Assembly: GCA_032718475.1 (NCBI GenBank)
Contig: JAUCBJ010007832.1
Location: 3,715-67,714, forward strand
Length of the DNA: 64,000 nucleotides
Source of the DNA: Nemertoderma westbladi
Lineage: Eukaryota; Animalia; Xenacoelomorpha
Reading direction: 5' to 3'
Shown here: positions 28,431 to 53,213 of the stretch, piece by piece
Layout: the number at the start of each line of letters is the position of its first letter
Numbering within the stretch: position 1 is the first letter of the stretch
Program-made: the position numbers and the translations under genes
Notes under the pieces: model-generated
Told to the model about the DNA's origin: nothing
The model's input: the letters and a program-made list of their open reading frames with translations, nothing else
Database searches by the model: none

Positions 28431-28499
28431 ACCTGACCTGAATTACATTGGTCGCGGCAGATGGCTCAGGCGAAAATCAAGTACTTTTGAGTAATAACT

Positions 28500-29115
28500 A
28501 TTTACATACTTGTGTGCAAAGTAGCACTTTACATTGTGTTGATCCGAGTGCTTTGTTACACGAACGAACGTAGTGAGTGAGCGAAAATAAAGTAACGAAG
28601 TTCAGAACACTGTAAAGTACTTTTAACAAGTATAGGCCTACATACAGTATGTATGTACTTTTATTCCAAAATTGTAACATTACGAAATGATTGTATATAT
28701 ATTTTAAGTGATAGAAACTGCACAAATTAAGTTAGTTGCTGTAAAAATAAATGTAAAAATGACATAAATTATGTTATAAAAAAAGTTAGCTTATATTTAT
28801 GGTGGCGTTTGGAGCCAAGTAATAGTTTATAGCGACTGGTTATTAATAGCTACCGGTAGGTAATGAAGTTGGCCTATCTGGCTGTCAGGCAATTAATAAT
28901 AAATACCAACTATTGTTTATGTGGTAACCATGGCGATCCCAAGTTTCAGGTTCACTTTCATTGAACGGATGCACTGTAAAGTCGCTCTGTTGGGACATTA
29001 CAACATAATAATATATCACTAATGCACAGGCTATAATGTCCTCTAAAGTTGTAAAGTGCTAAAATAACAACTCGCTCTTAATACAAATGGCATTGAGTAA
29101 TATTAAAATTTTGGA
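28500..29115. repeat. Uninterrupted, inverted relative of the repeat that hosts LTR element 1
   Basis: Reverse-complement similarity to 5640-6010 and 18520-18630, e.g. TAATGAAGTTGGCCTATCTGGCTGTCAGGCAA. Confidence 0.7.
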
Positions 29116-30121
29116 AAAAATAATTATTATAATCAAATTACCACGCAGCATAATCTAGACAAAGATAATGTTTCTATTATTTCGATGACCTTGGAGGTTG
29201 GTAGACAGGTAAATAATTAAACTATTTCGCAGGCGCAGCAAGTGTATGATAAAATTCAGAATGCAGTTAGTTATCCAAATATATTCCACACAAAGTAGGC
29301 CTAATAGAGCGTGAACTTATAGGAATATCGGAGCAATCATCAGTATCATCCAATCAAATCGTGGGAATTTCTTTGCAATGAATTTGTAAACCATTTTATT
29401 GGCTCCTATAAACCGTGATTTACGATATGAAAAATAACTTCAGTAAACCTCAGATGTTTGTTTCTCAATAAGAACACAAAATATACAACACTAAGCCGTT
29501 TGTTTACTCCGGAATAATTGGAAATCATTTGCTACACACTCTGTGGATAACAATATAGTTAGTGTTTGATATTCACTACATTACTATATGGACTGGCATA
29601 ATCTTTTAGGCTCGTTTAGACAAGGAATGCCTGTTCACCACAATTAATAGGTGATTGATCACCCACATTAAACCCTTCCACTCTAATTGATAAATTGATG
29701 GGATAAAAAATTGAAACTAGTCCAACTTCTGTAGGTAGCACCACCAGTATTTTTTAACATACTTATTATAGAATCGTCAGCCTATACATACAGTAAACCA
29801 GTAGGCCCTAGTCTATTTGATCAGTCCTCACTCACAATGTTTCGTTTTAAAATACTGAAATTCTTCAATAATTTCCCCTAAACTGCATACATAACAATAA
29901 TATATTAAAATTAAATAAATAGGTAAAATAGATAAAATGAGGGCCAGTTGAATGACTGAAGTGCAAAACACGGAATAGAAGTAGCTCCCGCCTTCAAGTA
30001 GCAGCTATCGAAAAATGTGCTTACGCGTCGCATCCGGTTTCGGTTTCCGACTGTTTGCTTTCTTGAATTTAATTAAAAGTTTTAAAAAATACATTTGAAT
30101 GGATGCATCATTGGTTAGTTA

Positions 30122-31009: not shown

Positions 31010-33050
31010 ACTTAGTCTTCAGGAGCCTGGAGAGATCTGATTTCCAGATGGTATCCATTTTTGATAGAGCTACCCAAGCCTTTGCTTTCCTAACGTCCTA
31101 ATGTCCTTTTTGCTTCTCTCTATCCATGATCCAAAGTCATCGACCTTCCTTAGTTGATTATTATCAATGGTTGTCAAGTTTCCATCAACATTAAAGGTCA
31201 TGAATTCAGTCTTGGTAGCATTTATATGCAATCCAACCTCCTTAGAAGCCCTGCCACTTTATTTAGTAGAAGCTGTGCATCTGCTAGCGTATTAGTGAGC
31301 AGGGCGATGTCATCCGCAAAGTCGGTGTCTGTGACTGTAGTTCCCAGATCCCAGATCTTCACCCGTTGTGGCTGTTCTCATTGGGTAATCCAGCACGATT
31401 ACAAATAGTAATGGTGCTAATGTGTCAACTTGCAGTACACCAGCCAGGATTGAGTACCTGCGCTTCTATGTCACAATATAACAATCCAATGCCAGCAAAA
31501 ATTACTTCAGGTATTCCATAAGCTCTTAGGATTTCAAGCATTTTACCTCTATGGATGGAGTCGAATGCCTTTTTGAAGTCCACAAAACTCATGACTGCGG
31601 CGAGATTCTTTGACTTAATTCCTTCAATTAGTCTCCGGAGTGCAAGTATCTGAGCTATTGTTGATCTACTTGGTTGAAATCCGTTTTGACTCTTATGCAG
31701 TAGTTTCTCTATGTGAGGCCTAATCCTATATAGAATCATTTGATTGTATATTTTGGCAGCTACCACAAGCAGACAGATCCCACGATAGTTTGTTGGTATG
31801 CCGAGGTCTCCTTTCTTGGGGAGAGGCTTTAGTTGACCTTTAGTCCAAATTGGTGGTGGCTTTTCCCCGTTTAAAATCCGGTTGCAAACATTCAATAATG
31901 GTCTGTTTAGCACTCCTGTTTTCCATACCTCCGCTGGGATTTCATCTAATCCACTCGCTATATTATTGGACATGCTTTTAATGCTTCTCTGGAGTTCGGC
32001 AAGTGTGATTCCCCTGTTTCTATAGGTAGTGTCTTGTCATATATTTTCCTTGTAGGGCTGACCTAGATGTTTGGTGGCTGCCCCAGCAAGTTGCTGAAGT
32101 GATTTTTCCACTTCCCCACACGTTCTTCGGGACTATCGGCTTTGAGGCGCCCCTTTGCACAACTTTTCCGACCAGATACCTCATTTACAGTTTGCCAGGT
32201 AAGTCTTGATTGTTGCTGTATGTGAGCAGTTGTAATTGCTTCAGTTTTATCCTGTATGTACTTTTCCTGGCTGATGTTGTAGGCCAATTTAAGATCGTCC
32301 TTAGCTTTCTCAACCTTGTTAATGTTTTCGGTTGTTGGTTGTTCGGTTTTAACTTTGTAGGCTATATTAAGATCTTCTATCTTACAAGTAACCTCAGAGT
32401 TTTGCCATGGCACATACTGTTTTCGTTTGGGTTTCTGGGGGATATGCCTCTTAGCTGATTCCTTGTGGGCTGTTATTATAATATTCTGGTATATTGAATC
32501 AGTGGACTGGTCTTCATCCATTGACTGAAGTGCTTCAAAGCGGTTTTGAACTTCTACTGTGTAAGCATCCTTTACTGCATTGTCAGTTCTGAGTTTCTCC
32601 CAGTCATAGTTGATTTGCTTGCTTTGCCTGGGTTTGCTGGCTCTCAAACTGAGTCTGTTCTCTGCAGTCACAATTCTGTGGTCCGAACCAATTAGGTTGA
32701 ACGAGCTGTATGCCTCGCAGTTGATCATGCTGTTTCTCCACTTTTTGTTTATGAGGATGTAATCCAGTTGAGCTTTGGTTCCATTAGGGTATTGAAAGGT
32801 CCATAGCTTCCCCTTCCCTTACTCTTTTCGAATGTGGTGTTTGTTGGTATCAATTCACATTCTTCCATTAGGTCTAAAAGTAAGTACCCATTTCTGTTAG
32901 AATTGGTGTTATAGGTGTAACCCTTGATGTCTTCTGGGCCAATTTGCACATTCAGGTCACCAGCATTGACTTTAACATTGTGTTTCGGAATGTCCTTTAT
33001 AAGTCCAGTTAGATCTTCATAAAACTTGACTGCTTGTTCCGGCTCTGAGG
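31010..33050 (-). mobile_element. Truncated, decayed RTE-like LINE (APE C-half + RT)
   Basis: GDLNVQIG, QLDYI, GSDHRIV, NYRGICLL, QNGF, FVDFKKAFDSI, DFADDIAL. Confidence 0.85.
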
Positions 33051-34097: not shown

Positions 34098-35201
34098 GAT
34101 TGTCAGCCAGTCGGACGGTGCCATATGTCTGGTGGTTGGTCGGGGATCCTAATTGTCAGCCAGTCGGGCCGTGCAATATGTCTGGTGGTTGGTCGGGGAT
34201 CCTAATTGTCAGCCAGTCGGGCGGTGAAATATGTCTGGTGGTTGGTCGGGGATCCTAATTGTCAGCCAGTCGGGCGGTGCAATATGTCTGGTGGTTGGTC
34301 GGGGATCCTAATTGTCAGCCAGTCGGGCCGTGCAATATGTCTGGTGGTTGGTCGGGGATCCTAATTGTCAGCCAGTCGGGCCGTGCAATATGTCTGGTGG
34401 TTGGTAGGGGATCCTAATTGTCAGCCAGTCGGGCGGTGCAATATGTCTGGTGGTTGGTCGGGGATCCTAATTGTCAGCCAGTCGGGCCTTGCAATATGTC
34501 TGGTGGTTGGTCCGGGGATCCTAATTGTCAGCCAGTCGGGCCGTGCAATATATCTGGTGGTTGGTAGGGGATCCTAATTGTCAGCCAGTCGGGCGGTGAA
34601 ATATGTCTGGTGGTTGGTCGGGGATCCTAATTGTCAGCCAGTCGGGCCGTGCAATATGTCTGTTGGTTGGTCGGGGATCCTAATTGTCAGCCAGTCGGGC
34701 CGTGCAATATGTCTGGTGGTTGGTCGGGGATCCTAATTGTCAGCCAGTCGGGCGGTGAAATATGTCTGGTGGTTGGTCGGGGATCCTAATTGTCAGCCAG
34801 TCGGGCCTTGCAATATGTCTGGTGGTTGGTCGGGGATCCTAATTGTCAGCCAGTCGGGCGGTGAAATATGTCTGGTGGTTGGTCGGGGATCCTAATTGTC
34901 AGCCAGTCGGGCGGTGCAATATGTCTGGTGGTTGGTCGGGGATCCTAATTGTCAGCCAGTCGGGCCGTGCAATATGTCTGGTGGTTGGTCGGGGATCCTA
35001 ATTGTCAGCCAGTCGGGCGGTGAAATATGTCTGGTGGTTGGTCGGGGATCCTAATTGTCAGCCAGTCGGGCGGTGCAATATGTCTGGTGGTTGGTCGGGG
35101 ATCCTAATTGTCAGCCAGTCGGGCCGTGCAATATGTCTGGTGGTTGGTCCGGGGATCCTAATTGTCAGCCAGTCGGGCCGTGCAATATGTCTGGTGGTTG
35201 G
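34098..35201. repeat. 53-bp GC-rich minisatellite (about 21 copies)
   Basis: Unit GGGGATCCTAATTGTCAGCCAGTCGGGCCGTGCAATATGTCTGGTGGTTGGTC; no unique spacers. Confidence 0.95.
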
Positions 35202-36310: not shown

Positions 36311-37265
36311 TTATTTATCATTTAACAAAGTAATCTGATGAAGAATGTTTCGAGCCAGGTTGTTGTCAACAAACATTACCTCGGCATTCTCGCCAATTGA
36401 GATAACTGGAGGATCCTCTAGTATAGGCCTACATCCGTTATCTTCATCTCCAACTCCTGAAGTCTCAACAGCTGAAGCATCCAACGTAAACATTTGAGGA
36501 TCTGGAACCACAAGATTCAATCGTCTCATCTCTTCTTTGGCCTTTAACGTCTTAAGGCAAATTAAATACCGGTTTTCTTTTATCATTAACAACTGCTGTT
36601 GAACCAATTGAAGATCTAGAGCGGTCTCCGTTGATTTGACCCCGGCGGAACAAATGCGTTTGGCCGCAATAGATTCGGATGTGTGATCTATGATCGATCT
36701 ACCAGGATCGGTTCCTGTACTAACTGGAGCTGGAGGTATCGGAATATTTTCTTTTTCGCGAATATCATTACCAGTAGTGTTAGATCCACCACACTCCGCC
36801 CCAGATCCTATACCAAAAATTACATCGCCACTTGAACCGTGAATTATTTCGAACATCTTCATGACATAAACGGGGGGTTGCGGAACCGGTGGTCCACCTC
36901 CGGTTCGATGGTATTTTAGTGCATTAGCGTAAGTGCGAACAACTTGTTTTGTGTTTTCTATCTTTTTTATTAGTTCGTCTTTCGATCGAGGAGCCTCCAC
37001 CCCCGAAGCGTTAAAACGATTTAGCATGGCCTGCCATGCACGCACGCTCCTTCGTTTCCGGAGTTATGTTTTTCGTTTTATTAAAAGAACCACTAACGAG
37101 GCCATGGTACTTCTCGTACACTGTCACGAGCTGACAGGCGTCATTCACTGTCCAATTTTTCGACCTTTTTCGGCTCTTCTGCTTTGACTCAGCAATATTA
37201 GGCCTAATAGTACAACCGGTGTCCGTATCGTTAAAATAAATATTTCTGTCTGCATCCATCTCCAT
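36311..37265 (-). pseudogene. PIF/Harbinger Myb/SANT-like DNA-binding protein gene, frameshifted
   Basis: RKRSKNWTVNDACQLV...K(E)RAWQAM..RFNA..PRSKDELIKKIEN...RTGGGPP; ORFs 37011..37280 and 36311..37045 are joined if a 4-bp duplication (GCAC, about 37040) is removed. Confidence 0.75.
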
Positions 37266-38860: not shown

Positions 38861-40240
38861 ATTGTTGCTTGTTGTTGCTCATTGTTGCTCGTTGTTGCTC
38901 ATTGTTGCTCATTGTTGCTCATTTTTGCTCGTTGTTGCTCAAGGTTGTTGTTCGTTGTTGCTCATTGTTGCTCGTTGTTGATCGTTGTTGCTCATTGCTG
39001 TACGTTGATGATCGTTGTTGCTCATTGTTGCTCATTGTTGCTCATTGTTGCTCGTTGTTGCTCATTGTTGCTTGTTGTTGTTCATTGTTGCTCGTTGTTG
39101 TTCATTGTTGCTCGTTCTTGCTCATCGTTGCACGTTGTTGATCGTTGTTGCTCATTGTTGCTCGTTGTTGCTCATTGTTGCTCGTTGTTGCTCATTGTTG
39201 CTAGTTGTTGCAAATTGTTGTTCATTGTTGCTCGTTGTGTCTCATTGTTTGTCGTTGTTGCTCATTTTGCTAATTGTTGATCGTTGTTGCTTATTGTGGC
39301 TCATTGTTGTTCGTTGTGTCTCATTGTTTGTTGTTGTTGCTCATTTTGATAATTATTGATCGTTATTGCTCATTGTCGCCATTGTTGGTCGTTGTTGCTC
39401 ATTGTTGCTTCTTGTTGCTCGTTGTTGTTCATTGTTGCTCGTTGTTGCTCATTGATGCACGTTGTTGATCGTTGTTGCTCATTGTTGCTCGTTGTTGCTC
39501 ATTGTTGCTTGTTGTTGCTCATTGTTGCTCGTTGTTGCTCATTGTTGCTTGTTGTTGCTCGTTGTTGCTCGTTGTTGTTCATTGTTGCTCGTTCTGGCTC
39601 ATTGTTGCTCATTGTTGCTCATTGTTGCTCGTTGTTGCTCAAGGTTGTTGTTCGTTGTTGCTCGTTGTTGATCGTTGTTGCTCATTGTTGCTCATTGTTG
39701 CTTGTTGTTGCTCATTGTTGCTCGTTGTAGCGCATTGTTGCTCGTTGTTGCACATTGTTGTTCATTGTTGCTCATTGTTGCTCGTTGTTGCTCGTTGTTG
39801 ATCGTTGTTGCTCATTGTTGCACGTTGTTGCACGTTGTTGATCGTTGTTGCTCATTGTTGCTCGTTGTTGCTCATTGTTGCTTGTTGTTGCTCATTGTTG
39901 CTCGTTGTTGCTCACTGTTGCTTGTTGTTGCTCGTTGTTGCTCGTTGTTGTTCATTGTTGCTCGTTCTTGCTCATTGTTGCTCATTGTTGCTAATTTTTG
40001 CTCGTTGTTGCTCAAGGTTGTTGTTCGTTGTTGCTCATTGTTGCTCGTTGTTGATCGTTGTTGATCGTTGTTGCTCATTGCTGTACGTTCTTAATCGTTG
40101 TTGCTCATTGTTGCTCATTTTTGCTCGTTGTTGCTCGTTGTTGCTCGTTGTTGTTCATTGTTTCTCGTTCTTGCTCATTGTTGCTCATTGCTGCTCATTT
40201 TTGCTCGTTGTTGCTCAAAGTTGTTGTTCATTGTTGCTCG
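38861..40240. repeat. 10-bp (RTTGTTGCTC)n satellite, left part, split by LTR element 2
   Basis: Direct reading; continues at 52345-53213. Confidence 0.95.
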
Positions 40241-41499
40241 TGTAAAAGCTTCTGTGGGATATAACTGGCCCTTTTGCTTCGCAATCCAGTTTCCCCCCAG
40301 GCGCTGGAATACTCTAAAAAAGGTTCTCTAATTGTATATATATTCCCCTCGCCCGCAAGGTACCGTTACAGGTGTTTTAACGGACATAAAAGTCATTCTG
40401 CTATATACGTGTTTTAGCGGACATGGTAAGGCAAAAACCTGCAATGCACCAAATACCTTTCACAGCTTAGCCGTGATGATTCATATTACGACATCTAACA
40501 GCTGGTTGCTGACATGGAAACAGCCATTGGACGCAGGGTTCTTTGTTGGCTTGAGCCAATCAGAGCGATTTTTCCTGTCGACGTGTAGCTTTTCGGCCGA
40601 TCATAAGGAGAGTGTTCAGTCTTACTGTTTTTTCTTGTTACTTTATTGTTGTTGCTATCTAGGCCAGTAACAACGGCTCTAGAGTCAATTCATTTCATAC
40701 TTTAGAAGAAACATTAGTAGGCTCAAGATTATAGAGCGTATAACTGTTATCGGTTCATAACAACTCACATATCGGTCCATATCAGTACATTGTCATATCA
40801 TATCTTAACCTACCGTCTTAATAGTTTGCTGTTGTTTGGTTGAATATTATTTGGAGAACATTTATAAAGAACCCAAATTTCCCAATTTTCTTGATACACT
40901 ACAGGTTAGAGAGACGGGTTATATATAGCGATTGCGACTTATATTATTGTGGTTTGTAGTGAATTTAATGCTATTTGATAAGCACTACATGAATCCGTTG
41001 CTGTTCTCTTTATATATGATAAAATTCATTGACGGTCGGCAAATTAGTGAGCAGTATTGTGTGTTACCGGTAGTGTGCATGATTGTGACTGATAACTAAG
41101 CATTTCCTAAAGAATGCGCCTCATACGTGAATCATAAGCCTTACCGACTTACCGTTGTGATTAGTATAAGTCATATCTCGGTTTACTTAGATAGAGCGCC
41201 ACGTCCTAAAGGAACTGTTAATATTTCCCGAAAGTAAATAATATTAGTCAGAAATTAATTATTAACGATCAATCGAATAATACAGTACAGTAAGCTTACA
41301 CTGCAATAATAATCTAAGCCCTCAGAATCCAGTCTCCCGGGAATATCCAGTGGGTGAATGGACGCGCACTAGGCTGGCTTCTGCTAATGTTGTGTTTATT
41401 GGTATTAAATATTTGTCATCTTCTAAAGTATATTTATAAACCAAAAGACATATAAATTTTGGCAGGTTAAACTGCTAAAGGTCTTCAAAAGCGCGTACA
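40241..41499 (+). repeat. 5' LTR of element 2
   Basis: Direct repeat of 51086-52344; I saw only about 2 substitutions by eye. Confidence 0.95.
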
Positions 41500-41510
41500 A
41501 TAACAGTTAT
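41500..41510 (+). promoter_or_regulatory. Non-tRNA primer-binding site ATAACAGTTAT, complementary to LTR 40740-40750
   Basis: Abuts the LTR end; exact reverse complement of ATAACTGTTAT in its own LTR. Confidence 0.75.
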
Positions 41511-43762
41511 TGACTTTATTGCAGTAAGCAATAAAGTTGAAAGTACCGGTCAACCGGTAAACCTGAACCGGTACTTCTGTAGGTCAGTAGGCCCAACTGC
41601 CAGAACCGGTACTGCTGTAGGTCCGTAGGTCCAACTGCCAGAACCGGTACTTCTGTAGGTCCGTAGGCCCAACTGTCCTAACCGGTACTTCCAGTATAAG
41701 TACATTAGTATTATTCGATTTTGATTATTGTATACCGGTAGGTCTTAGTATTTAATCAGGGACGGCCGCCCTGGTTTTTATTGAGATTTTACTTATTTCT
41801 GTCGGTTTTATTTACATGTAAGTTAATATTGAGCTGAAGACGTGTAAGTCTGCTCAGATTGTTCAGATAATTGTAGGCCGGACTGTTGTCAGATTGTTGT
41901 TGGGTTTGGAGAGATTACGGCGTGTGTGGAGTTTGTCCGATAGAGTGCCAGTTAGTAAGTTGGGGCAGCCATTGCTGTAAGGTCAATCCCCTCTTAAAGA
42001 ATAAGTCGTACTACCGTGTTAGAACGCATACTAACTAACAATTTTGGAATCTGCACATACTGTAGTTTATTTAGGCTTGACAGTATTCTGCCAGCGCTTT
42101 GGCCTGTGTTTGTTTGTGTGGTCTGTTCAGGTACCGTAATAGTTATTACTCAGATATTTTGTAGGCTGGATTGTTGTCTAGCTATTATTAGGTCTGAAGA
42201 GATTGCTGCTTGTGTAGAGTTTGTCTGATAAAGTGCCAGTTAGTAAGTTGGGGCAGTCATAACTGTAAGGTCAATCCCCTCTTAAAGAATAAGTCGTACT
42301 ACCGTGTTAGAATGCATACTAACTAACCGTTTTGGAATCTGCACATACAGTAGTTTATTTAGGCTTGGTGGTAGTCTGCCAGCGTTTGGTTTGTATTTTG
42401 TTTGAGTATTCTGTACGGGTAGCGTAATATTTATTATTCAGAGTTTATGCGATTATTCGCAACATTCATGTCCCCAAGTTTATTCCTACAGTAATTGTGC
42501 TTGTTACACATACCGTTATAGTTAAATTAACCCCGGTACTACACGGGCTGCTTGGCGTAGGACAAGACTGGTGATTTTGTGCACCGGTCACTCCAGCAGA
42601 TGCCGTGGTTCTTTTAACTGTTCAAGTATATTTAACTACTGATTATTTGTTGTACCAGTATTGTACCTAATTTAGGGTTTAGTGTACAGTGCTTTCCGAA
42701 GTAATTAGTGTGTAGGCAGTATATTTGTGTTGTAAAGTGGTTAATAGGCACGCTGGATCTGGTAGTCCGCGGTAATTAACTTCTAGGTAGGAACACTCCG
42801 TGATACATAACGTAGTACCTATAGCGATACGGTTATAGGTCGTCAGGCGGTGGTATTTTCCTATCTGGACAACGCAGTGTATTTACTACTACTTATTATT
42901 TTCAAATACCGTAGTACCCTGTCCGTTGTAATAACCAGAATTCTAACCCTTTGTTAGACTGGTTTGTAGACTTCCTGTAAAATTACCCTAAAAATTCGTA
43001 CGTAATATTTTGTTGTGTTTAATTAGAGATTTAATCTCACCCGTATCGTAAGTAATTTGTAGTATTAAGTAACTTAGGTAAATTAGAATTATCTGTTTTA
43101 GTGTCCCATAAATAGCACTTCACTGAGAGCGCACAGCTTCTGTGTAGTGACCCCCCAGAAATAATAACATTTATTTCAAATATTGACAAAACCCTTTTAA
43201 ACGGGTATATATATATTATAAATCAACTCAAACGATTTATAAATAGTAGGCCTGCCATACAACAACTAGGTCTCAAAATCAGTTGGACTACTGCTTAAAT
43301 AACGGTAACAAAGTAAGTTAAAGTAACCAAGTAACCCTAAAATATTCAGAAATTCAATTATTCTAAAAATAATTGACATACCGGTATTTACCATAGGCTT
43401 ATTATATTTATTTCTATAAATTTGAGCTGAAATCATACTGGTATTCTGTAATTAATTCTAGTTCATAATTATACTTATATATACTATAAGTGTAAGCTGC
43501 ATACCGGTATTCACGATAGGCCTATTATATATTTATATATATTTGTGCTAAAATTATATACCGGTACTCTGTGACAAATCTAGTCTGTAATAATACTTAT
43601 ATATATACTATAAGCATACCGGTATTCTAATATATTATATATATATCACGCTACACTGAGTAGCAGTATCGGTAATTAATTGTTAGGCTAACAGTGATAC
43701 TGAATTACTAGACTTACTTTAACTGTATTTATAGCCGTAGGCATTCAACTGTGTAAACAAAC

Positions 43763-46700
43763 ATGTCAGACGCAACCCAATCACTGTCAGATAGTCTCTT
43801 AGAAAGTGTTAGAATGAGTATTAGACTTAGACAGCGTATTAAAAGGATCTGTGACCAAGATAAAAGTATAGAACATCCCAGATCCAAGTCTAAGTCACCT
43901 ACTATTGTAAAAAAGGCCATCCCTACAGTAGTAGTGTCAGACCCTAGGCTAGTAGAACAACGTAGGTCTATCATCAGCACTCGGGCCCAAGTCAAGCGGG
44001 ATCAAGAAGCAGCTGTCAAACCGCAGCAACATCCTAGCCAAGAACCTAGTTCTCAGCGGCCCGATAGCTCCGGTGGTTCGGATACTGCTGAGCGGACACC
44101 CGAACGCGGAGCGAAGATGGCGGATACGGTTTATGATGAGCGGCCAACCTATGAAGAATCAACCGACGCCACTTCTTCTCAAGTGGAAAGCGAAGTGGAA
44201 AGCGAAGTGGAAAGCGAATTAACAGCAGCAGAGAAGCCGCAAACTAGAGATGCCATTGACATCTATCTGTCAGACTATCAGCGATTCCTAGGAGACGAAG
44301 AGTTGAGGAGACGACTGTCTGGACTTCGCCCTAATAGTGAAGGAACCAAGCTTGTGTTGGACGCAATCGATGCGGAAATGTTAGCTGCAGAACAAGCTAA
44401 ATTTGATGAAAAACTCCGCCTCGTTAGAGTCCAAGAAGAACAAATAAAGAAAAAACAGATAGAGGACCGAAAGGCAGCAGCAGTAAAGGCGGCAGAAGCA
44501 GAAGCAGCAAAGGCGGCGGCAGAAGTAGAAGCAGAAAGAAAGGCAGCGGAAGTAGAAGCAAAAGGAAAGGCAGCGGTAGCAGAAGCAGAAAGAAAGGCGG
44601 CAGCGGCAATGGCAAAGGCAGTGGCAGAAGCAGAACGGAGAGCGTCTGAGGAGACTACCCAACTGGAGTTGGAAAATCTGCAAGAGACGCAAGACTACAT
44701 AAATAAAAAGCTAACTGCTAGTCGAATGCAGATGATGAGACGATCTACTCCAAAACGCCAGGGATACACGTCATCGGAGGAAAGCGAAACCACCGATCCT
44801 GAAGGCGGAAGAAATAGATCTCGTCTAAGCAGGCGTAGAAAAACATCTCACCGTCATAAACTGCCTGATTTGCCCCCAGCTGTCAGAAGACAACTAGCTA
44901 GCACAGACTTAGGTAGTACAGGACCCACAGACCAAATTATTCAGGTCACAAGACTCCCTACAATAGTTGATGAGCCTGAAATAATTAGGCCTGTCGTTCC
45001 CAAAGCCACTCCTGTGCTAGAGACCCCTGTACTTCCAGAGCTTAACTCTAAATTCCCTCTACACAGTACTACACTGTCTGTACCCGGTAGAACAGTCCAT
45101 GAGAATATCCCTGTCCTGGAAGCTGAGAGAGAAATCAAAGATTTGTCTCCCGTCGTCCCGCGTCAGCCCGCTACAATGTTGGCGACTCCCGCTTCGGCGG
45201 TTGAGTGGGTAGAGGAGGGACGACGGGGGATGAATCTCCTGCTCGGACAGATGCAGGAGACTGTCCACCAATTTAAGGGAACAGTAAGGGAAGGTAGGGC
45301 CGAATTGCAAGAAGTGCAGCAAAGTATCGCGCTAGAACGCGACAAATTAGTCAACATACCAAAGGGTATACCCATACCCCCTGTAACATTGTGTCAACCT
45401 GTTAGGTCTGAAGTATTACATGCGCAAGGTGTGGAGCCTACACGCATCTATACTGCTAGTGAAGTAGAAACCCCTATAGCAAACCCTATTAAGGGTGATT
45501 ATAGACCTGTTGTTAATGATGTTCCCTATAGACCTGATAATGATCCGAGAAATTTATATACCGATAATTCGATATTAAATAACACGATGGCCCAAGAAAG
45601 CTTTACGCGTCAGATGGCTAGAACAGAAGCCCGCCAAGCGGTCAAAGTGGGAGAGATCGTTAAATTCAATGGAGATGAGATGAAATGGCTACCTTTCAAT
45701 GAATATTACAAAGATAGCATACAAAACTCTGTACTATCTAACGGAGAGAAACTTAGGTTCCTCATCAAGTGCTTGGAAGGACCTCCCAGGTTAATGGCGT
45801 TAAAGTTTATTGGACATCCAGATGGATTAAGACAAGTTTGGGATACATTAAACATCAGGTATGGTAACAAAGATAACATAGCTAAGTATTTGTATGCAAA
45901 ATTAGTAGCCCCCCGACACTTCCTTAGTAGCGGGATTATAGAGTTTTCCGATGAAATTCAGGAAATCTGTAGACAATTGGACTGGTTAGGTAAGTCTCAT
46001 GAATATCAGAGTTCCATGGTTATTGGAGCAGTAGTCTCTACTTTACCCAAGGGTGGAGTATGTACACGTTGGGACAAGAAAGTGTTGTACATGAATGAAC
46101 AACAACGACGAAGCCCTACCATGACTGATCTCATGTCCTTCTTAGATGGTGAAGTAAAACTACAACTCATCAAGCAGTCCAGAGAGAAAACATCGGAAAA
46201 TAAGGTAAGTGAGAAACCTGCTTCTAGGAGAAGAGTAACACCGGTGTGTTACACTGACGACGGCGAAAGCCAAGCTTCTCAAGAAGAAGACAGCGGGAAA
46301 GACACAGCAAAATCTTACTATGACAACAAGACCTATAAAGACGTAAGTAAATACAAGTCTCGAATCAGTGACAGGAGAGAACAGGTAACAACAACTCCTC
46401 CTACGTCTCCTAAGAGAATGCACGGAAAAAAGCCCGAAGAAAGAACGAGAGTGCATAACGTTACCCAAGGTAAGGTGAGTGATATCAAACCAAAATGTGC
46501 GCTGTGCGACAGGCCCCACCGTTTGAGTGCGTGTGCTGAATTTCTAAAGAAATCCCCTGTAGACAGACGTACAGTCCTGTGGAATAAGCGGTTATGCTAT
46601 AATTGCCTCAGATCAGGACACCAACGGCGAACCTGTTACTCCGACGTAAAGTGTGCAAAGTGTGGCGCGAAACATCACATCTTGTTACACAGTGAGTTCG

Positions 46701-47929
46701 AACGAGACAACCCGAGTCAGGTAAGTGAGCCCGAACTACATGTCCAATTCAGTGATGTAAATGACACTGATCAAGAGTCTGAGATGGAAGGATTCTATAC
46801 TGACGAATTCTCCGACGCCAACGAATCCTGTTATCTAATCAATACCGCAGTGTATCGAGCACTTACTTACGAAAAGGACACCGACAATGAGTTCCCCCCA
46901 ACTACCTTTGACAGACAACCATCTTGGAAAGCTCCAACTTCCAACGTAGGAATCAGAAAATTTCCTGTAGTGCAGGTAAGAGTTCACGGTCCTAACAAAA
47001 GTTACATAGTGAACGCCCTCCTTGACTCCGGCAGCACAGGAACATTCATCGATCAAGAACTAGCCGAAGATATCTTTGCTGGACAACCCAAATTCCGGAC
47101 TAAATTGAATATGTCAGGAATTATGCAGGTTTGGAAATCTACCCTAACGGCAGATTACTATGTAGGTGTGTTGTCCACCCCCCAGGATAAATTAGGAGCA
47201 CAAGGTATAAGGTCGGTAAAAATGGTGGCTATAAAGAACTTCGCTACTACCCAAGCAGACCTTTATAATTGGGACGAGGATGAGAGCATCCAACATCTTA
47301 AGATACCTCGATTCCAGACAGATTATCCTGGAGTGCAAATACTCATCGGCCAAAACGCGCATGAGGCGCTCGAGACATTGGAGAAACGGCCTGCTCAACC
47401 GCAGCCACTGCAAACCTATGCGGTAAGAACTAGAGTAGGTTGGTACTTCACTGGCCCTTCCCGTAGAACTCTCAAAGAGAGATTACCTCAACAACAGGTA
47501 TACCAAGTAAAGGAATGGGAAGTGGAGAGCAGTGATGTGGACGATCCAACTGAGGGAACACCATACTCCTCAGATAATGACGATATTAACTCCAATGTAG
47601 ATCAATGGAGACATTGCCTTGGGACGATTAATCCAGCCGACATCGCTTCCAGAGGAGCAACTCCTCAAGAACTGATAGATACTCCAGGCTGGTTAGGTGG
47701 ATCCGACTTCTTAAGTAAAGAAGAAGAAGAATGGCCTCCTCATCTTACCCCGGCGGAGATTAGACAGGCCAAGGGAGCGGAGAAAATAATACAACAACTC
47801 AATCCCCCAGCTGGTCGTTTATGTTTACTGGAAAGAGACCGAAAACTGTCCGGAAACTATGGAAGGCAAGATACTCTTCCTACGACCACTTCCCTAATCC
47901 GACAAATATCTAGGGACTCCATAACGTAA
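43763..47929 (+). CDS. BEL/Pao Gag-protease polyprotein (copy 2), intact ORF of 1388 aa with vestigial RNase H and integrase tails
   Basis: DUF1759-like Gag, three zinc knuckles, LLDSGS protease, then QWRHCLGTINPADIASRG..W.GGSDFL (end of Pao RNase H) and PAGRLCLLE (integrase C-terminal tail-like). Confidence 0.9.
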   Translation: MSDATQSLSDSLLESVRMSIRLRQRIKRICDQDKSIEHPRSKSKSPTIVKKAIPTVVVSDPRLVEQRRSIISTRAQVKRDQEAAVKPQQHPSQEPSSQRPDSSGGSDTAERTPERGAKMADTVYDERPTYEESTDATSSQVESEVESEVESELTAAEKPQTRDAIDIYLSDYQRFLGDEELRRRLSGLRPNSEGTKLVLDAIDAEMLAAEQAKFDEKLRLVRVQEEQIKKKQIEDRKAAAVKAAEAEAAKAAAEVEAERKAAEVEAKGKAAVAEAERKAAAAMAKAVAEAERRASEETTQLELENLQETQDYINKKLTASRMQMMRRSTPKRQGYTSSEESETTDPEGGRNRSRLSRRRKTSHRHKLPDLPPAVRRQLASTDLGSTGPTDQIIQVTRLPTIVDEPEIIRPVVPKATPVLETPVLPELNSKFPLHSTTLSVPGRTVHENIPVLEAEREIKDLSPVVPRQPATMLATPASAVEWVEEGRRGMNLLLGQMQETVHQFKGTVREGRAELQEVQQSIALERDKLVNIPKGIPIPPVTLCQPVRSEVLHAQGVEPTRIYTASEVETPIANPIKGDYRPVVNDVPYRPDNDPRNLYTDNSILNNTMAQESFTRQMARTEARQAVKVGEIVKFNGDEMKWLPFNEYYKDSIQNSVLSNGEKLRFLIKCLEGPPRLMALKFIGHPDGLRQVWDTLNIRYGNKDNIAKYLYAKLVAPRHFLSSGIIEFSDEIQEICRQLDWLGKSHEYQSSMVIGAVVSTLPKGGVCTRWDKKVLYMNEQQRRSPTMTDLMSFLDGEVKLQLIKQSREKTSENKVSEKPASRRRVTPVCYTDDGESQASQEEDSGKDTAKSYYDNKTYKDVSKYKSRISDRREQVTTTPPTSPKRMHGKKPEERTRVHNVTQGKVSDIKPKCALCDRPHRLSACAEFLKKSPVDRRTVLWNKRLCYNCLRSGHQRRTCYSDVKCAKCGAKHHILLHSEFERDNPSQVSEPELHVQFSDVNDTDQESEMEGFYTDEFSDANESCYLINTAVYRALTYEKDTDNEFPPTTFDRQPSWKAPTSNVGIRKFPVVQVRVHGPNKSYIVNALLDSGSTGTFIDQELAEDIFAGQPKFRTKLNMSGIMQVWKSTLTADYYVGVLSTPQDKLGAQGIRSVKMVAIKNFATTQADLYNWDEDESIQHLKIPRFQTDYPGVQILIGQNAHEALETLEKRPAQPQPLQTYAVRTRVGWYFTGPSRRTLKERLPQQQVYQVKEWEVESSDVDDPTEGTPYSSDNDDINSNVDQWRHCLGTINPADIASRGATPQELIDTPGWLGGSDFLSKEEEEWPPHLTPAEIRQAKGAEKIIQQLNPPAGRLCLLERDRKLSGNYGRQDTLPTTTSLIRQISRDSIT

Positions 47930-49558
47930 TAACATATGGAGTGGGCGTGTGACTATATCATTTTATATTTGTTTTTATTTTATATTTATGTATGTATTAT
48001 TATGTAATTTTATTATAATCGTTTTCTTTAATTTTATTTAGTAGAATGTTATTTTAGGGATTATTTAGTAGATTAGTGCAATATATTAGTGTTTATTACG
48101 TACGTAATTACTTATAATATATTTAGTGCGACGGCGAGAAATAATTATTTTTTCTCTTTCCTTACTGTCCGTATCATATTGTAAATACGTGACTACAGTA
48201 AGATGAGATGTCCGTACTTAGTAAAGTACAATAAAGCCACTACTATATTCAAGTATTATTGGTAGGCAGAGTATTAGGAATGCAAAGTTCAGATCCTCGT
48301 GTCTCGGCTAAACCAAGCTCTGGGTAGACCTTGGAAACGACTTGCCTCTTCACACTGACATTGCTTCGTGCGATATTGCTCTTCTACCTTATATTAAATA
48401 ATACATATAGTAGCGTGATGTCCCTCTAACAGTAGCGTAAAACGCAAATAAATCTGTTAAACCTTTTGACCATCTGTAATTCTAGTCGATTAAGATATCG
48501 CGGCACCCACCGATATACTTGAAAGACAAATTCTAGAATCAGTGGTTACCGTCCCCAGACAAGTTCTGGAATAAATCGGTGCCCATCTTAAATATTAATT
48601 TAATATTTATTAAAATCTGTAAAATTCAGATCCGATAACAATTCTAGTCAATTAAGATATCGCAGCACTTACCGATACTCTTTTAAAGGACAAATTTCAT
48701 AGAATTAAGGATCCTATGCCCCCAGACCTGCTCTGGAATCAAATTGTGTCAATTTTAACATCAAATAATAAAATTCACGGGAATAAATTTAAATTCATAT
48801 TTTAAATGAATTTCATAAATTGTCATTTTGTACAATTTATAACATTCCCAAAATTCCATTAATTAATAGATCATGGGAGCGGAGATTCATCCTATTGAGT
48901 GTATTAGAGTGCGAGAATCTCCAACATATAGTCAATAGCCGATAAAATTAATAAAATCATGCATAAAGAGGATATTGACAATTAAAGAATTATTATTAAA
49001 TAGCATCCCAGATCTGTATGCATGAGAATTACCCTAATTCTACCGCTAGCATTCCATAATGTCACCATAGCAACACCCACGCTAGAATTAGAAGCAAGTT
49101 AAAAGAACAATAGAAAGCTTGTCCCATTGCATAGCATAGAGAATATAGCACACTGTTAGTATCCAAGGATACACAGTAATAACGTGACATTCTGGAAGGC
49201 ACTGACTAACGGACAAATGGCCTGTATGTGTACAATTGGTGACAGTTGTGTGGAATTTGTGCGTTTGTAGGTGAATGTTACTGCTAAGGTGTGTTTACAG
49301 TAGCTAGTCGCAATTGTGAAAGTAACCCAACTCTCCTATAGAAAGAACCTAAAGTGGATTCAAGCCTTTGGGACGGACAGTGGAGTGACTTGTGCCGGTT
49401 ATCGTTGTCGTACTGTTGCTACATGTTGGCGTAAACACCGCGACAACGGTACATCGGCGCTGAGGATCCCACTGTCCGGGGGCAAAGAGAGGTAGGCAGC
49501 GACGTCCGCTCGCCTAAACATAAACTCATTTCGATATTAACAAACTCAGATAGCAGAT

Positions 49559-51007
49559 ATGACGGAGTTGATAGAAGATGATCTTGGTATCAAGGAGCGA
49601 TATACTCTACCTTTGCAAGCATTTGTGGATAGCTTAATACGCGGTGAAACCGATCCAACCATTACGGAGGACAATGGTCGTTATATCGAACCGCCGACGT
49701 CCCAAGAGCAACTTACGCGTGAATTGGACTATCGAAAATTCACCGCTCGCTATACGCATCGTGATAATACGTATATGGACTTCCTAACTACCGGCCATCC
49801 TATCGATTTACATGATACGGACGATGTAGACACCGAAAGGAAAATGGTTCTATTTAAATATCATACCCAGCGGAGTCGTAACGATAAACCGAAAATAGAT
49901 CACGAAAATTCTATTCGTAACAGACTGGGAAGACGAACCAATATGCCTAGAATCTGAGGAGATTCAGCCTATTGCGCCCGGAACAGCGACAACGATTACA
50001 TCCTAGAATGGTATCAAGGTCCACAGTGTCTCACTGCGTACGATTATCGCCATGCCAACTATGTTTCTCGGCAACGTTGTCGGTTATGCGCATCGAGAGA
50101 CCATGTTACGCCCATGGACACAAACGTCCGCTGTTCCTATTTCCACGAACAACCGGCGATGAAAATTTATTGCGCGTATTGCAGATTAAATAATTTGCAC
50201 GTTTTTGCGGTTTGCCCTCAATTTATGACTCAACGTCACCATTGTCAACTAAAGGGACATGCCAGTTTCGATTGCCCTTTTAATCACGATTTGGAAAGCG
50301 TAGATGAAATGATCACACTACGTTACATCAGAGCTTGGGAAGCGAACGCTGATTTACATTGTGATTCGCGCCATCGCTATTATCCCGGACATGCTTACGA
50401 AGGAGTTTATGCGTTCCATCCTTATCTATTCGCTTCGGTTGAACAGAAATCACGCATATCAAGTTACGAGCTACTGAAGCGCGTTGGAGAATGTATTTCA
50501 ACCAAATTCGTACGCAAATTTCTCAGGAGTGTTAATCCTAGCGACCTTCATTCCTATAACTTAATCAATTATATCCGTCAGGATCCGGACTATGGAGACT
50601 TGTTTGTTAACTCACACCCCGAGTTACAGGAAGTATATCGACGGCCTTACGAATACCGAGCCCGCGAACGCGAGTTGGAAAGGACCATTAAACCCCGGAG
50701 GTTTCTAACTGCCTATGGTCCACCCACGGCCCTCGTTCAGACCACTCGTAAAGGACCCGTAAGAGCGGCTGTCTTGAAACGAGCTCTCAAGGCCGTTAGA
50801 CCCCTCTCCCCGGACGTTGATGTCAATCAACCCGGTACTTCGACTGGCGGATACACCGACCAAAATCCTACACCCTCTGATGCAATCATATTGCACCCTT
50901 CACCCCGGAGTTATAGCCCTCCTTGTAAAGTGGCTCGCCCCAAAGAGAAAAGGACTCTGGCTAGCTTTAAGAAACTGCGTAAACGCCGTCCGCGCAAGAA
51001 AGACTAA
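49559..51007 (+). CDS. Accessory 3' ORF (about 482 codons, one internal TGA at 49955-49957); Cys/His zinc-finger-like middle and basic NLS-like C-terminus
   Basis: ORFs 49559..49957 and 50114..51007 are in the same frame and the gap is open; motifs CRLC-x4-H-x9-C, CAYC-x5-H-x4-C, C-x4-H-x4-C; ends KKLRKRRPRKKD. Confidence 0.65.
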
Positions 51008-51085
51008 CTGTTTAGAGTATTTACGTATATTAGAAACTGTGATTTTGTATATTTTATAGACTCAAATCCCATTTTCTGGGAGCGG

Positions 51086-52344
51086 TGTAAAAGCTTCTGT
51101 GGGATATAACTGGCCCTTTTGCTTCGCAATCCAGTTTCCCCCCAGGCGCTGGAATACTCTAAAAAAGGTTCTCTAATTGTATATATATTCCCCTCGCCCG
51201 CAAGGTACCGTTACAGGTGTTTTAACGGACATAAAAGTCATTCTGCTATATACGTGTTTTAGCGGACATGGTAAGGCAAAAACCTGCAATGCACCAAATA
51301 CCTTTCACAGCTTAGCCGTGATGATTCATATTACGACATCTAACAGCTGGTTGCTGACATGGAAACAGCCATTGGACGCAGGGTTCTTTGTTGGCTTGAG
51401 CCAATCAGAGCGATTTTTCCTGTCGACGTGTAGCTTTTCGGCCGATCATAAGGAGAGTGTTCAGTCTTACTGTTTTTTCTTGTTACTTTATTGTTGTTGC
51501 TATCTAGGCCAGTAACAACGGCTCTAGAGTCAATTCATTTCATACTTTAGAAGAAACATTAGTAGGCTCAAGATTATAGAGCGTATAACTGTTATCGGTT
51601 CATAACAACTCACATATCGGTCCATATCAGTACATTGTCATATCATATCTTAACCTACCGTCTTAATAGTTTGCTGTTGTTTGGTTGAATATTATTTGGA
51701 GAACATTTATAAAGAACCCAAATTTCCCAATTTTCTTGATACACTACAGGTTAGAGAGACGGGTTATATATAGCGATTGCGACTTATATTATTGTGGTTT
51801 GTAGTGAATTTAATGCTATTTGATAAGCACTACATGAATCCGTTGCTGTTCTCTTTATATATGATAAAATTCATTGACGGTCGGCAAATTAGTGAGCAGT
51901 ATTGTGTGTTACCGGTAGTGTGCATGATTGTGACTGATAACTAAGCATTTCCTAAAGAATGCGCCTCATACGTGAATCATAAGCCTTACCGACTTACCGT
52001 TGTGATTAGTATAAGTCATATCTCGGTTTACTTAGATAGAGCGCCACGTCCTAAAGGAACTGTTAATATTTCCCGAAAGTAAATAATATTAGTCAGAAAT
52101 TAATTATTAACGATCAATCGAATAATACAGTACAGTAAGCTTACACTGCAATAATAATCTAAGCCCTCAGAATCCAGTCTCCCGGGAACATCCAGCGGGT
52201 GAATGGACGCGCACTAGGCTGGCTTCTGCTAATGTTGTGTTTATTGGTATTAAATATTTGTCATCTTCTAAAGTATATTTATAAACCAAAAGACATATAA
52301 ATTTTGGCAGGTTAAACTGCTAAAGGTCTTCAAAAGCGCGTACA
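51086..52344 (+). repeat. 3' LTR of element 2
   Basis: Direct repeat of 40241-41499. Confidence 0.95.
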
Positions 52345-53213
52345 GCTCGTTCTTGCTCATTGTTGCTCATTGTTGCTCATTTTTGCTCGTTGTTGCTCAA
52401 GGTTGTTGTTCGTTGTTGCTCATTGTTGCTCGTTGATGATCGTTGTTGATCGTTGTTGATCGTTGTTGCTCATTGTTGTACGTTGTTGATCGTTGTTGCT
52501 CATTGTTGCTCTTTGTTGCTCGTTGTTGCTCATTGTTGCTTGTTGTTGCTCATTGTTGCTCGTTGTTGATCGTTGTTGCTCATTATTGGTCGTTGTTGCT
52601 CATTGTTGCTTGCTGTTGCTCATTGTTGCTCGTTGTTTCTCATTGTTGCTCGTTGTTGCACATTGTTGTTGTTCGTTGTTGCTCATTGTTACTAATTGTT
52701 GATCGTTGTTGCTTATTGTTGCTCATTGTTGCTCGTTGTGTCTCATTGTTTGTCGTTGTTGCTTATTGTTGCTCATTTTTGCTCGTTGTTGCTCATTGTT
52801 GTTGATCGTTTCTGCTCATTGTTGCTCGTTGTTGTTCATTGTTGCTCGTTCTTGCTCATTGTTGCTCATTTATGCTCGTTGTTGCTCAAGGTTGTTGTTC
52901 GTTGTTGCTCATTGTTGCTCGTTGTTGATCGTTGTTGATCGTTGTTGCTCATTGTTGTACGTTGTTGATCGTTGTTGCTCATTGTTGCTCATTGTTGCTC
53001 GCTGTTGCTCATTGTTGCTTGTTGTTGCGCGTTGTTGTTCAGTGTTGCTCGTTGTTGCTCATTGTTGCACGTTGTTGATCGTTGTAGCTCATTGTTGCTC
53101 ATTGTTGCTCGTTGTTGCTCATTGTTGCTTGTTGTTGCTCATTTTTGCTCGTTGTTGCTCATTGTTGTTCATTGTTGCTCATTTTTGCTCGTTGTTGCTC
53201 ATTGTTATCGTTG
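52345..53213. repeat. 10-bp (RTTGTTGCTC)n satellite, right part
   Basis: Same unit as 38861-40240. Confidence 0.95.

Follow-up and report, generated by a model that had tools for sequence, protein, structure and literature searches.

The Gag-only strategy of LTR retrotransposons is not new, because it is known in plants (TR-GAG) and in zebrafish (Bik-1 and Bik-2). According to the available text of the plant report, the TR-GAG elements are non-autonomous LTR families of <4 kb that are derived from Copia or Gypsy, have one Gag ORF, are defined by their lack of a protease, have been amplified as families, and are presumed to be mobilized in trans; an autonomous counterpart of TR-GAG1 was not found (PMC4350172). 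The zebrafish BHIKHARI families Bik-1 and Bik-2 have Gag without pol, were recently active, and have a partner that was inferred but not seen. The accessible part of that report describes them as endogenous retroviruses, not BEL elements, with gag only so far as seen, and with a demonstrated host role (PMC12067270).

Autonomous BEL/Pao elements (Belpaoviridae) are 4.2 to 10 kb long and have a DUF1759 capsid, three zinc knuckles, a protease, and LTRs of the TG...CA type; the ICTV profile gives their primer as tRNA-Arg or tRNA-Gly, with an 18-nt site (PMC8742986). Tf1, Tf2, Tj1, and the Tf1/sushi elements, all of them Gypsy chromoviruses that encode RT/RNase H themselves, have instead an 11-nt LTR sequence complementary to the site right after the 5' LTR; in Tf1, once RNase H has cleaved, the first 11 bases serve as the primer (PMC7175516). 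Under the criterion used for self-priming, part of the LTR must be complementary to 10 nt or more that begin 0 to 5 bp after the 5' LTR (PMC6317226). In the available portions of this literature, self-priming is tied to Tf1/sushi, Tcn1, and TAR (PMC7175516, PMC4600332, PMC6317226).

Here we describe two elements, E1 and E2, in a stretch of 64,000 nt from Nemertoderma westbladi (contig JAUCBJ010007832.1, positions 3,715 to 67,714 of the forward strand; hereafter, the window). They share the capsid, knuckles, protease, and LTR ends of autonomous BEL/Pao elements and keep short remnants of the RNase H tail and the integrase end, but they are 12 kb long and have neither RT and integrase nor a tRNA-Arg/Gly site. 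As in TR-GAG, Gag is present without RT, RNase H, or integrase (short remnants only) and there are at least two copies (two in the window and many read variants); unlike TR-GAG, they are 12.1 and 12.4 kb long, not at most 4 kb, are derived from BEL, and have a protease, which is under selection, and a second ORF. An earlier note on this DNA, made from the letters alone, had drawn the analogy to plant Gag-only elements, which holds for the way of working but not for size or protease. Like Bik-1 and Bik-2 they are animal LTR families with Gag but no pol, and their partner is likewise putative. With Tf1, Tf2, and Tj1 they share the 11-nt complementarity, but their protein is that of BEL and the cutting enzyme would be needed in trans.

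Two elements and their insertion

Self-comparison of the window revealed two related BEL/Pao LTR elements, both on the plus strand. Their main parts are as follows.

40241-52344, plus strand: element E2, 12,104 bp, non-autonomous BEL/Pao with an LTR pair and a target duplication (TSD)
40241-41499, plus strand: E2 5' LTR, 1259 bp, TG...CA
41511-43762, plus strand: E2 leader, long, with 38-bp and 288-bp tandem repeats
43763-47929, plus strand: E2 ORF1, 1388 aa in one open frame, with Gag, three zinc knuckles, protease, and pol remnants
49559-51007, plus strand: E2 ORF2 (accessory), with one in-frame stop (49955-49957) and a Cys/His-rich middle not in E1
51086-52344, plus strand: E2 3' LTR, 2 differences/1259 from the 5' LTR (99.8% identity)
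6152-18515, plus strand: element E1, 12,364 bp, second subfamily, with an LTR pair and a TSD
6152-7290 and 17377-18515, plus strand: E1 LTRs, 1139 bp, 5 differences/1139 (99.6% identity)
9484-14130, plus strand: E1 ORF1, with an in-frame stop (13546-13548) and a 531-bp in-frame segment not in E2
15691-17298, plus strand: E1 ORF2 region, with a stop (15820-15822) and a 76-bp perfect inverted repeat (16900-17056)

The two are laid out alike: a 2.2-kb leader, the long ORF1, ~1.6 kb of noncoding sequence, ORF2 in broken form, and a purine tract of 8 nt. The LTR lengths and this tract agree with what defines BEL/Pao (LTRs of 0.2 to 1.2 kb and a purine tract of ~10 nt). Identity between E1 and E2 is patchy, being 57% in the U3-like part of the LTR, 81% in the early leader, 93% in the late leader (42441-43762 in E2), and 98% at 48261-48440. 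The LTRs of E1 and E2 are 57 to 82% alike, while those inside one copy are nearly identical.

Each element is flanked by its own 5-bp TSD, ACAGT for E1 and GCTCG for E2 (40236-40240 and 52345-52349). The TSD of E2 sits inside a satellite with a 10-bp unit (~220 units, 38862-40241 and 52345-53206), and the phase of the satellite makes the duplication visible. E1 splits another repeat (5633-6151 and 18516-18679), of which matching pieces lie at 28491-29129 on the minus strand. Because the TSDs and the 99.6 to 99.8% LTR identity have no other source, the elements were inserted by reverse transcription and integration, and both insertions are recent. The earlier note had claimed near-identical LTRs and an intact TSD for each copy, and both are present; it had also called the lineage still mobile, of which the recent insertion stands, but LTR near-identity does not show present-day mobility.

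ORF2 has a start and an end that are common to E1 and E2 and a middle that is non-homologous (49927-50845 in E2 versus 16059-17136 in E1). The middle is the Cys/His-rich part of E2, and in E1 it ends with the perfect 76-bp hairpin; one loose end in read run X3 matches the E1 form. The ratio dN/dS in the shared N-terminal part is 0.34 (0.20 to 0.58). There was no homologue of ORF2 among 878 candidates and no Pfam match above the cutoff, and its predicted fold was unusable (pLDDT of 35).

Elsewhere in the window, an intronless ORF at 58064-60049 matches human PRMT5 (E of 4e-228) and has a GC content of 56% in a 35% GC region; it may be a retrocopy or else a gene without introns. On the minus strand outside E1 and E2, the stretches 25552-28074 and 31425-32818 contain broken frames for a LINE-like endonuclease and RT. 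An ORF at 36311-37063 (minus strand) has a Myb/SANT-like match just below the cutoff, of a kind that occurs in Harbinger transposons. Tandem arrays of 45 bp and 53 bp and a cluster of 15-bp repeats that forms long inverted repeats occupy 2123-3253, 34099-35201, and 21315-21773.

Loss of pol and selection on Gag-protease

The following parts of ORF1 were recognized.

45665-46051, plus strand: E2 capsid-type domain DUF1759, Pfam E of 2.9e-12
46496-46692, plus strand: E2 zinc knuckles, three, BEL type, intact in E1 and E2
46958-47482, plus strand: E2 aspartic protease, DSG intact, profile match E of 2e-20
47588-47755, plus strand: E2 remnant of the RNase H C-terminal tail, ~55 aa, profile positions 726-781, E of 3e-15
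47795-47833, plus strand: E2 remnant of the extreme integrase C terminus, ~13 aa, motif rank 1/61,036, degenerate
13702-13944, plus strand: E1 remnants of the RNase H tail and the integrase end, with junctions as in E2

DUF1759 was found in both copies (Pfam E of 3e-12 and 4e-12), and each has both the capsid and the nucleocapsid knuckles of a BEL/Pao Gag; the Pfam matches to the protease and the knuckles in ORF1 were below threshold. The D, G, and S of the protease are invariant in all eight aligned sequences, and the catalytic DSG is intact in E1 and E2. The in-frame stop of E1 falls late in the protease, ahead of the RNase H remnant; consequently, the E1 copy may not yield an active protease. 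The probability that decay after insertion would give such a single stop is ~0.35 to 0.4. The segment of E1 Gag that is absent from E2 (531 bp, in frame, within 9846-10444) has a weak Pfam match below the cutoff.

The relatives found by protein searches are BEL polyproteins with ~20 to 40% identity over the matched stretches. Three protein searches gave, respectively, 10 matches at 21 to 47% identity with partial cover of the query, one weak short match, and an E no better than 6e-35 among 11,465; none yielded a close relative of ORF1. E1 and E2 lie on a long branch in a tree of 90 sequences, in which their placement is weak (support of 0.52) and they are at most 29% identical to any of the 88 relatives; the tree left out 73 of 161 relatives that had no capsid or protease match. 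All recognizable protein is of the BEL type, and the elements lack the Gypsy chromovirus polyprotein that marks membership in Tf1/sushi.

A profile built from 55 full-length relatives was searched against all six frames of the whole window. In each element it matched only the protease (46964-47536 in E2 and 13078-13593 in E1; profile positions 4-186) and the RNase H tail (47588-47755 and 13702-13866; positions 726-781); the RT motif (position ~440) and the integrase core (~1000-1120) had no match in any frame. Thus, these are derivatives of BEL/Pao, not autonomous members. A YxDD-like motif at 10842 was considered as RT, but it is out of frame and was taken as chance. The protease end and the RNase H tail are 49 aa apart here. 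Both matches were present in 72 of the 161 relatives examined, 64 of which have 526 to 594 aa between them and 8 of which have fewer. Beyond the RNase H tail, full-length relatives continue for ~520 aa and E1 and E2 for ~60 aa. Compared to the relatives, E1 and E2 lack ~510 aa in the RT/RNase H region and ~460 aa of integrase. For the integrase end, the last motif of the relatives was scored as a matrix, chosen after the remnant had been seen; the E2 and E1 remnants ranked 1 and 2 of 61,036 positions, with scores (13.8 and 10.8) that are at or below the lowest of true relatives (13.8 to 39), i.e., they are degenerate. What is left lies in the order PR, RH tail, and IN end, with the RT and the integrase core of the BEL order (PR-RT-RH-IN) absent, and both deletion junctions are identical in E1 and E2. 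A lone record, barnacle gene model P0024, has a similar fusion of the protease to the RNase H tail, with the start of integrase kept.

The earlier note is partly borne out by these data. It had read both copies as running from the protease directly to the RNase H tail and then to an integrase-end remnant, and profile, spacing, and motif ranks agree in both; the common junctions and the absence of an RT or DDE core likewise hold, no BEL pol beyond the remnants having been found in six frames of the window. Its statement that this run is in one frame is correct for E2, whose ORF1 is open throughout, but not for E1, which has the stop.

We compared the Gag-protease of E1 and E2 over 1193 codons. 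With dN of 0.105 and dS of 0.47, dN/dS was 0.22 (bootstrap, 0.18 to 0.27), an estimate from two copies but far below 1; it was 0.12 in the capsid (aa 621-810) and 0.12 in the protease, and after the protease it was 0.60 (0.30 to 1.36), which is indistinguishable from neutral. Each of the eight indels within ORF1 preserves the reading frame, with a ninth located at its stop codon, whereas only 1 of 52 indels in the leader and the 3' noncoding regions has a length divisible by three. Small indels in the read pool numbered 144, and all 12 of those that were listed lie outside ORF1. Gag-protease is therefore under purifying selection. The earlier note had named a dN/dS near 1, or coding for RT or integrase elsewhere within the elements, as grounds to reject its reading, and neither was found. 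If Gag-protease had been neutral at a divergence of 0.066, ~9 to 12 stops would be expected, but only one was seen (P ≤ 0.001); thus, selection in the deleted state is likely, barring fresh swaps of Gag-protease on both lineages. Some of the selection may be older than the deletion or may reflect recombination with autonomous donors.

The value 0.066 is the divergence of E1 and E2 in the junction block (47546-47929). Synonymous differences fall from 289/827 sites in Gag-protease to 6/81 in this block (Fisher P = 4e-8), for which recombination or cis constraint could be responsible. LTR divergence is 0.0044 in E1 and 0.0016 in E2, with wide intervals, and by this comparison the junctions are, as a safe bound, at least 15 to 40 times older than both insertions. 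The deletion may be younger than the split of the E1 and E2 Gags. The earlier note had argued that the deletion is old and the insertions recent because the subfamilies differ by many substitutions. The deletion does precede the insertions, but the dating from whole-copy difference went too far: divergence in the junction block is 7-fold lower than at the synonymous sites of Gag-protease, and the many substitutions are in Gag-protease, not at the junctions.

Predicted self-priming and the purine tracts

The sequence right after both 5' LTRs does not begin with TGG. Instead, the 11 nt that follow each 5' LTR are the exact complement of one single 11-mer within the LTR: in E1, the primer-binding site (PBS) ATAACAGATAT pairs with ATATCTGTTAT at LTR position 436, and in E2, the PBS ATAACAGTTAT pairs with ATAACTGTTAT at LTR position 500.

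40740-40750, plus strand: E2 predicted self-primer, 11 nt, complement of 41500-41510, at the predicted 5' end of the transcript
41500-41510, plus strand: E2 PBS, adjoining the LTR, not of the tRNA type, with a predicted hairpin next to it
6587-6597, plus strand: E1 predicted self-primer, 11 nt, exact complement of 7291-7301
7291-7301, plus strand: E1 PBS, one base unlike that of E2 and matched in the primer
51078-51085, plus strand: E2 polypurine tract, 8 nt, ahead of the 3' LTR
47773-47780, plus strand: E2 purine-tract motif, internal copy 1, 8 nt
48875-48882, plus strand: E2 purine-tract motif, internal copy 2, 8 nt

The pairing is exactly 11 nt long, begins at offset 0, as the Tf1-type criterion allows (PMC6317226), and involves the same place in the LTR in both copies. 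Where the PBSs of E1 and E2 differ, at one base, the partner base has changed too, i.e., the change is compensatory. Shuffled LTRs contained the 11-mer in 2/3000 cases for E1 and 3/3000 for E2, and only 2/10,076 and 8/9,576 internal 11-mers had such a partner in the LTR. The predicted fold of the leader also pairs the 11-mer with the PBS, with pairing probabilities of 0.66 to 0.99 in E1 and lower ones, 0.34 to 0.94, in E2, whose primer site is nearly palindromic. LTR identity between E1 and E2 is 57% upstream of the 11-mer and 77% downstream, from which we infer that the 11-mer marks the U3/R boundary. A primer built by splicing was considered but is unneeded, since the 11-mer is contiguous. 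From these sequence features we predict that, in E1 and E2, the first 11 nt of the element's own RNA serve as the primer for reverse transcription. Searches for tRNA genes and for Rfam matches found none. Our literature searches, in the texts available to them, found no published report of self-priming in BEL.

Each element has three copies of the purine-tract 8-mer, in matching places, and the window has eight versus 0.54 expected, which suggests that the internal copies may be extra plus-strand primers. The earlier note's reading of the elements had overlooked the self-primer, the repetition of the purine-tract motif, and ORF2.

After the stop of ORF1, the stretch 47937-48440 has a purine run, TG, an AT-rich part, AATAAA, and a TGG-led motif, which we take to resemble an initiator-tRNA primer site. 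The stretch may be the relic of an LTR end or a cis signal; a search of the elements for a second copy of 47937-48275 found none (scores were below those of shuffles).

Family size, candidate helper, and rival explanations

Three DNA read runs of one organism, which contain 63 to 77% of sampled words, had 112,125, 67,919, and 28,068 contigs that aligned to E2. In run X1 the summed depth on E2 was 0.12 to 1.35 million per bin, compared to a depth of 28 for a 1,613-nt contig of the same run; these depths, which short overlapping contigs inflate, are not a copy number but hint that the family has thousands of copies. Depth stays high over the deletion junctions, and none of the 24 loose ends listed (of 4,172) is there, which is weak evidence that the deleted form dominates the family and bears, indirectly, on the third refuting condition of the earlier note, that most copies be full-length. 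Low-depth contigs, which carry long flanks unlike E2, match E2 (at ~80 to 83%) only at 45578-45754 (capsid; three runs), 46891-47038 (protease; one run), and 47597-47745 (RNase H tail; two runs, one sample). They fit a rare, more distant BEL family that is a candidate helper. We saw no helper carrying RT or integrase. Metagenome contigs gave no match to an LTR pattern and 45 to a Gag-protease pattern, of which none was confirmed.

We consider it probable that E1 and E2 are non-autonomous BEL/Pao elements that lost pol by two shared in-frame deletions, whose Gag-protease is selected, which likely package their RNA in their own capsid with RT and integrase borrowed from a rarer autonomous BEL relative, and which are predicted to be self-primed. 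The borrowing in trans, which the earlier note had inferred as well, remains an inference. On this model, the 11-mer in the LTR would be where transcription begins, and the Gag-protease would be made and would co-assemble with the Gag-Pol of the helper. At the 5' end of the RNA, the 11 nt would anneal to the primer site, and RNase H of the helper would cleave them off, as happens in Tf1. Plus-strand synthesis would begin at the 3' purine tract, perhaps also at its two internal copies; and helper RT would copy, and helper integrase insert, the DNA. Selection likely keeps Gag for packaging the RNA from which it was translated, and keeps the protease since particles with little helper polyprotein would still have to mature.

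The drop in synonymous divergence at the junction block, the patchy identity along the element, and the swapped middle of ORF2 could also be accounted for by a recombinant mosaic, in which a young, cis-acting, deleted 3' cassette was swapped onto the Gag-protease of different autonomous lineages, making a passenger without need of its own Gag, and the selection seen in Gag-protease would have acted in those donors. This would require fresh swaps in both lineages, for otherwise ~10 stops would have accumulated. In addition, the listed read-pool indels avoid ORF1, and the unlike relatives seen, which are rare, come to 80% in conserved motifs and nowhere else, making them poor donors. Cis-acting constraint may also explain the low divergence, two purine-tract copies being in or near the junction block, and we think the mosaic improbable. 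A contrasting proposal is a split two-part system, with the Gag-protease element as the main supplier of capsid and a Pol-bearing partner that depends on it. Single-ORF elements need Gag in excess over Pol; capsid and protease are both strongly selected; and read depth is very high for the deleted form and low for unlike relatives. The supply of Gag in trans is also raised in the available text of the TR-GAG paper (PMC4350172). Yet no partner sequence was seen, cis-preference alone accounts for selection on Gag, and the low-depth relatives, matching in capsid and protease, seem to own a Gag, so that such co-dependence is decidedly doubtful. A bolder form, to which we give a small but real chance, joins this division of labor to the priming: the abundant 12-kb element would be the dedicated capsid-protease half of a self-priming BEL/Pao, and the rare Pol-bearing partner would cut and extend its 11-nt primer in trans. 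If true, this would be a split self-priming system without need of a host tRNA, and a retroviral polyprotein divided over two genomes.

Because published self-priming is, in the texts available, tied to Tf1/sushi, Tcn1, and TAR, and the ICTV gives BEL tRNA priming (PMC8742986), the elements might instead be chimeras, with a self-priming LTR shell from a Tf1/sushi-type Gypsy element that took up the Gag-protease of a BEL element, and with a Gypsy element as helper. The features of 47937-48275 (purine run, TG, AATAAA, and TGG motif), which are like those of a relic LTR end, would agree with a capture, but the stretch has no second copy in the elements, and no Gypsy-type pol motif was found in E1 or E2. 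Pol is normally packaged through, and fused to, its own Gag; because it travels in this way, a BEL helper with the same priming is likelier than a Gypsy helper, and the chimera is very unlikely. Finally, the conservation of ORF1 might be that of dead, locally duplicated, or host-domesticated Gag genes that do not move. The differing flanks with a separate TSD for each copy and the LTR pattern, nearly identical within a copy and dissimilar between copies, refute this, and one read run has >100,000 variant contigs; we give immobility almost no credence.

In the literature searched, including the available text of PMC12440569 (Repbase-type entries and most subscription journals lay outside this scope), we found no Gag-protease or non-autonomous BEL family, and the available texts of BEL surveys, including PMC3118150, do not mention a non-autonomous Gag-only BEL family. 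Non-autonomous BEL/Pao elements of the kind that we favor would extend the strategy of the Gag-keeping parasite to BEL/Pao, with the protease selected as well. They are a natural experiment on why Gag is kept by elements that are not autonomous: to package their own RNA or to share the work with a helper. The compensatory change in primer and PBS is good sequence evidence for self-priming, still a prediction, in a superfamily described as tRNA primed, and it predicts traits of the helper. The largest BEL family in a survey of 62 genomes has 397 copies, according to the part of the report available (PMC3118150). If the hint from read depth holds, the family described here would be a major part of the host genome that RT-based surveys would miss.
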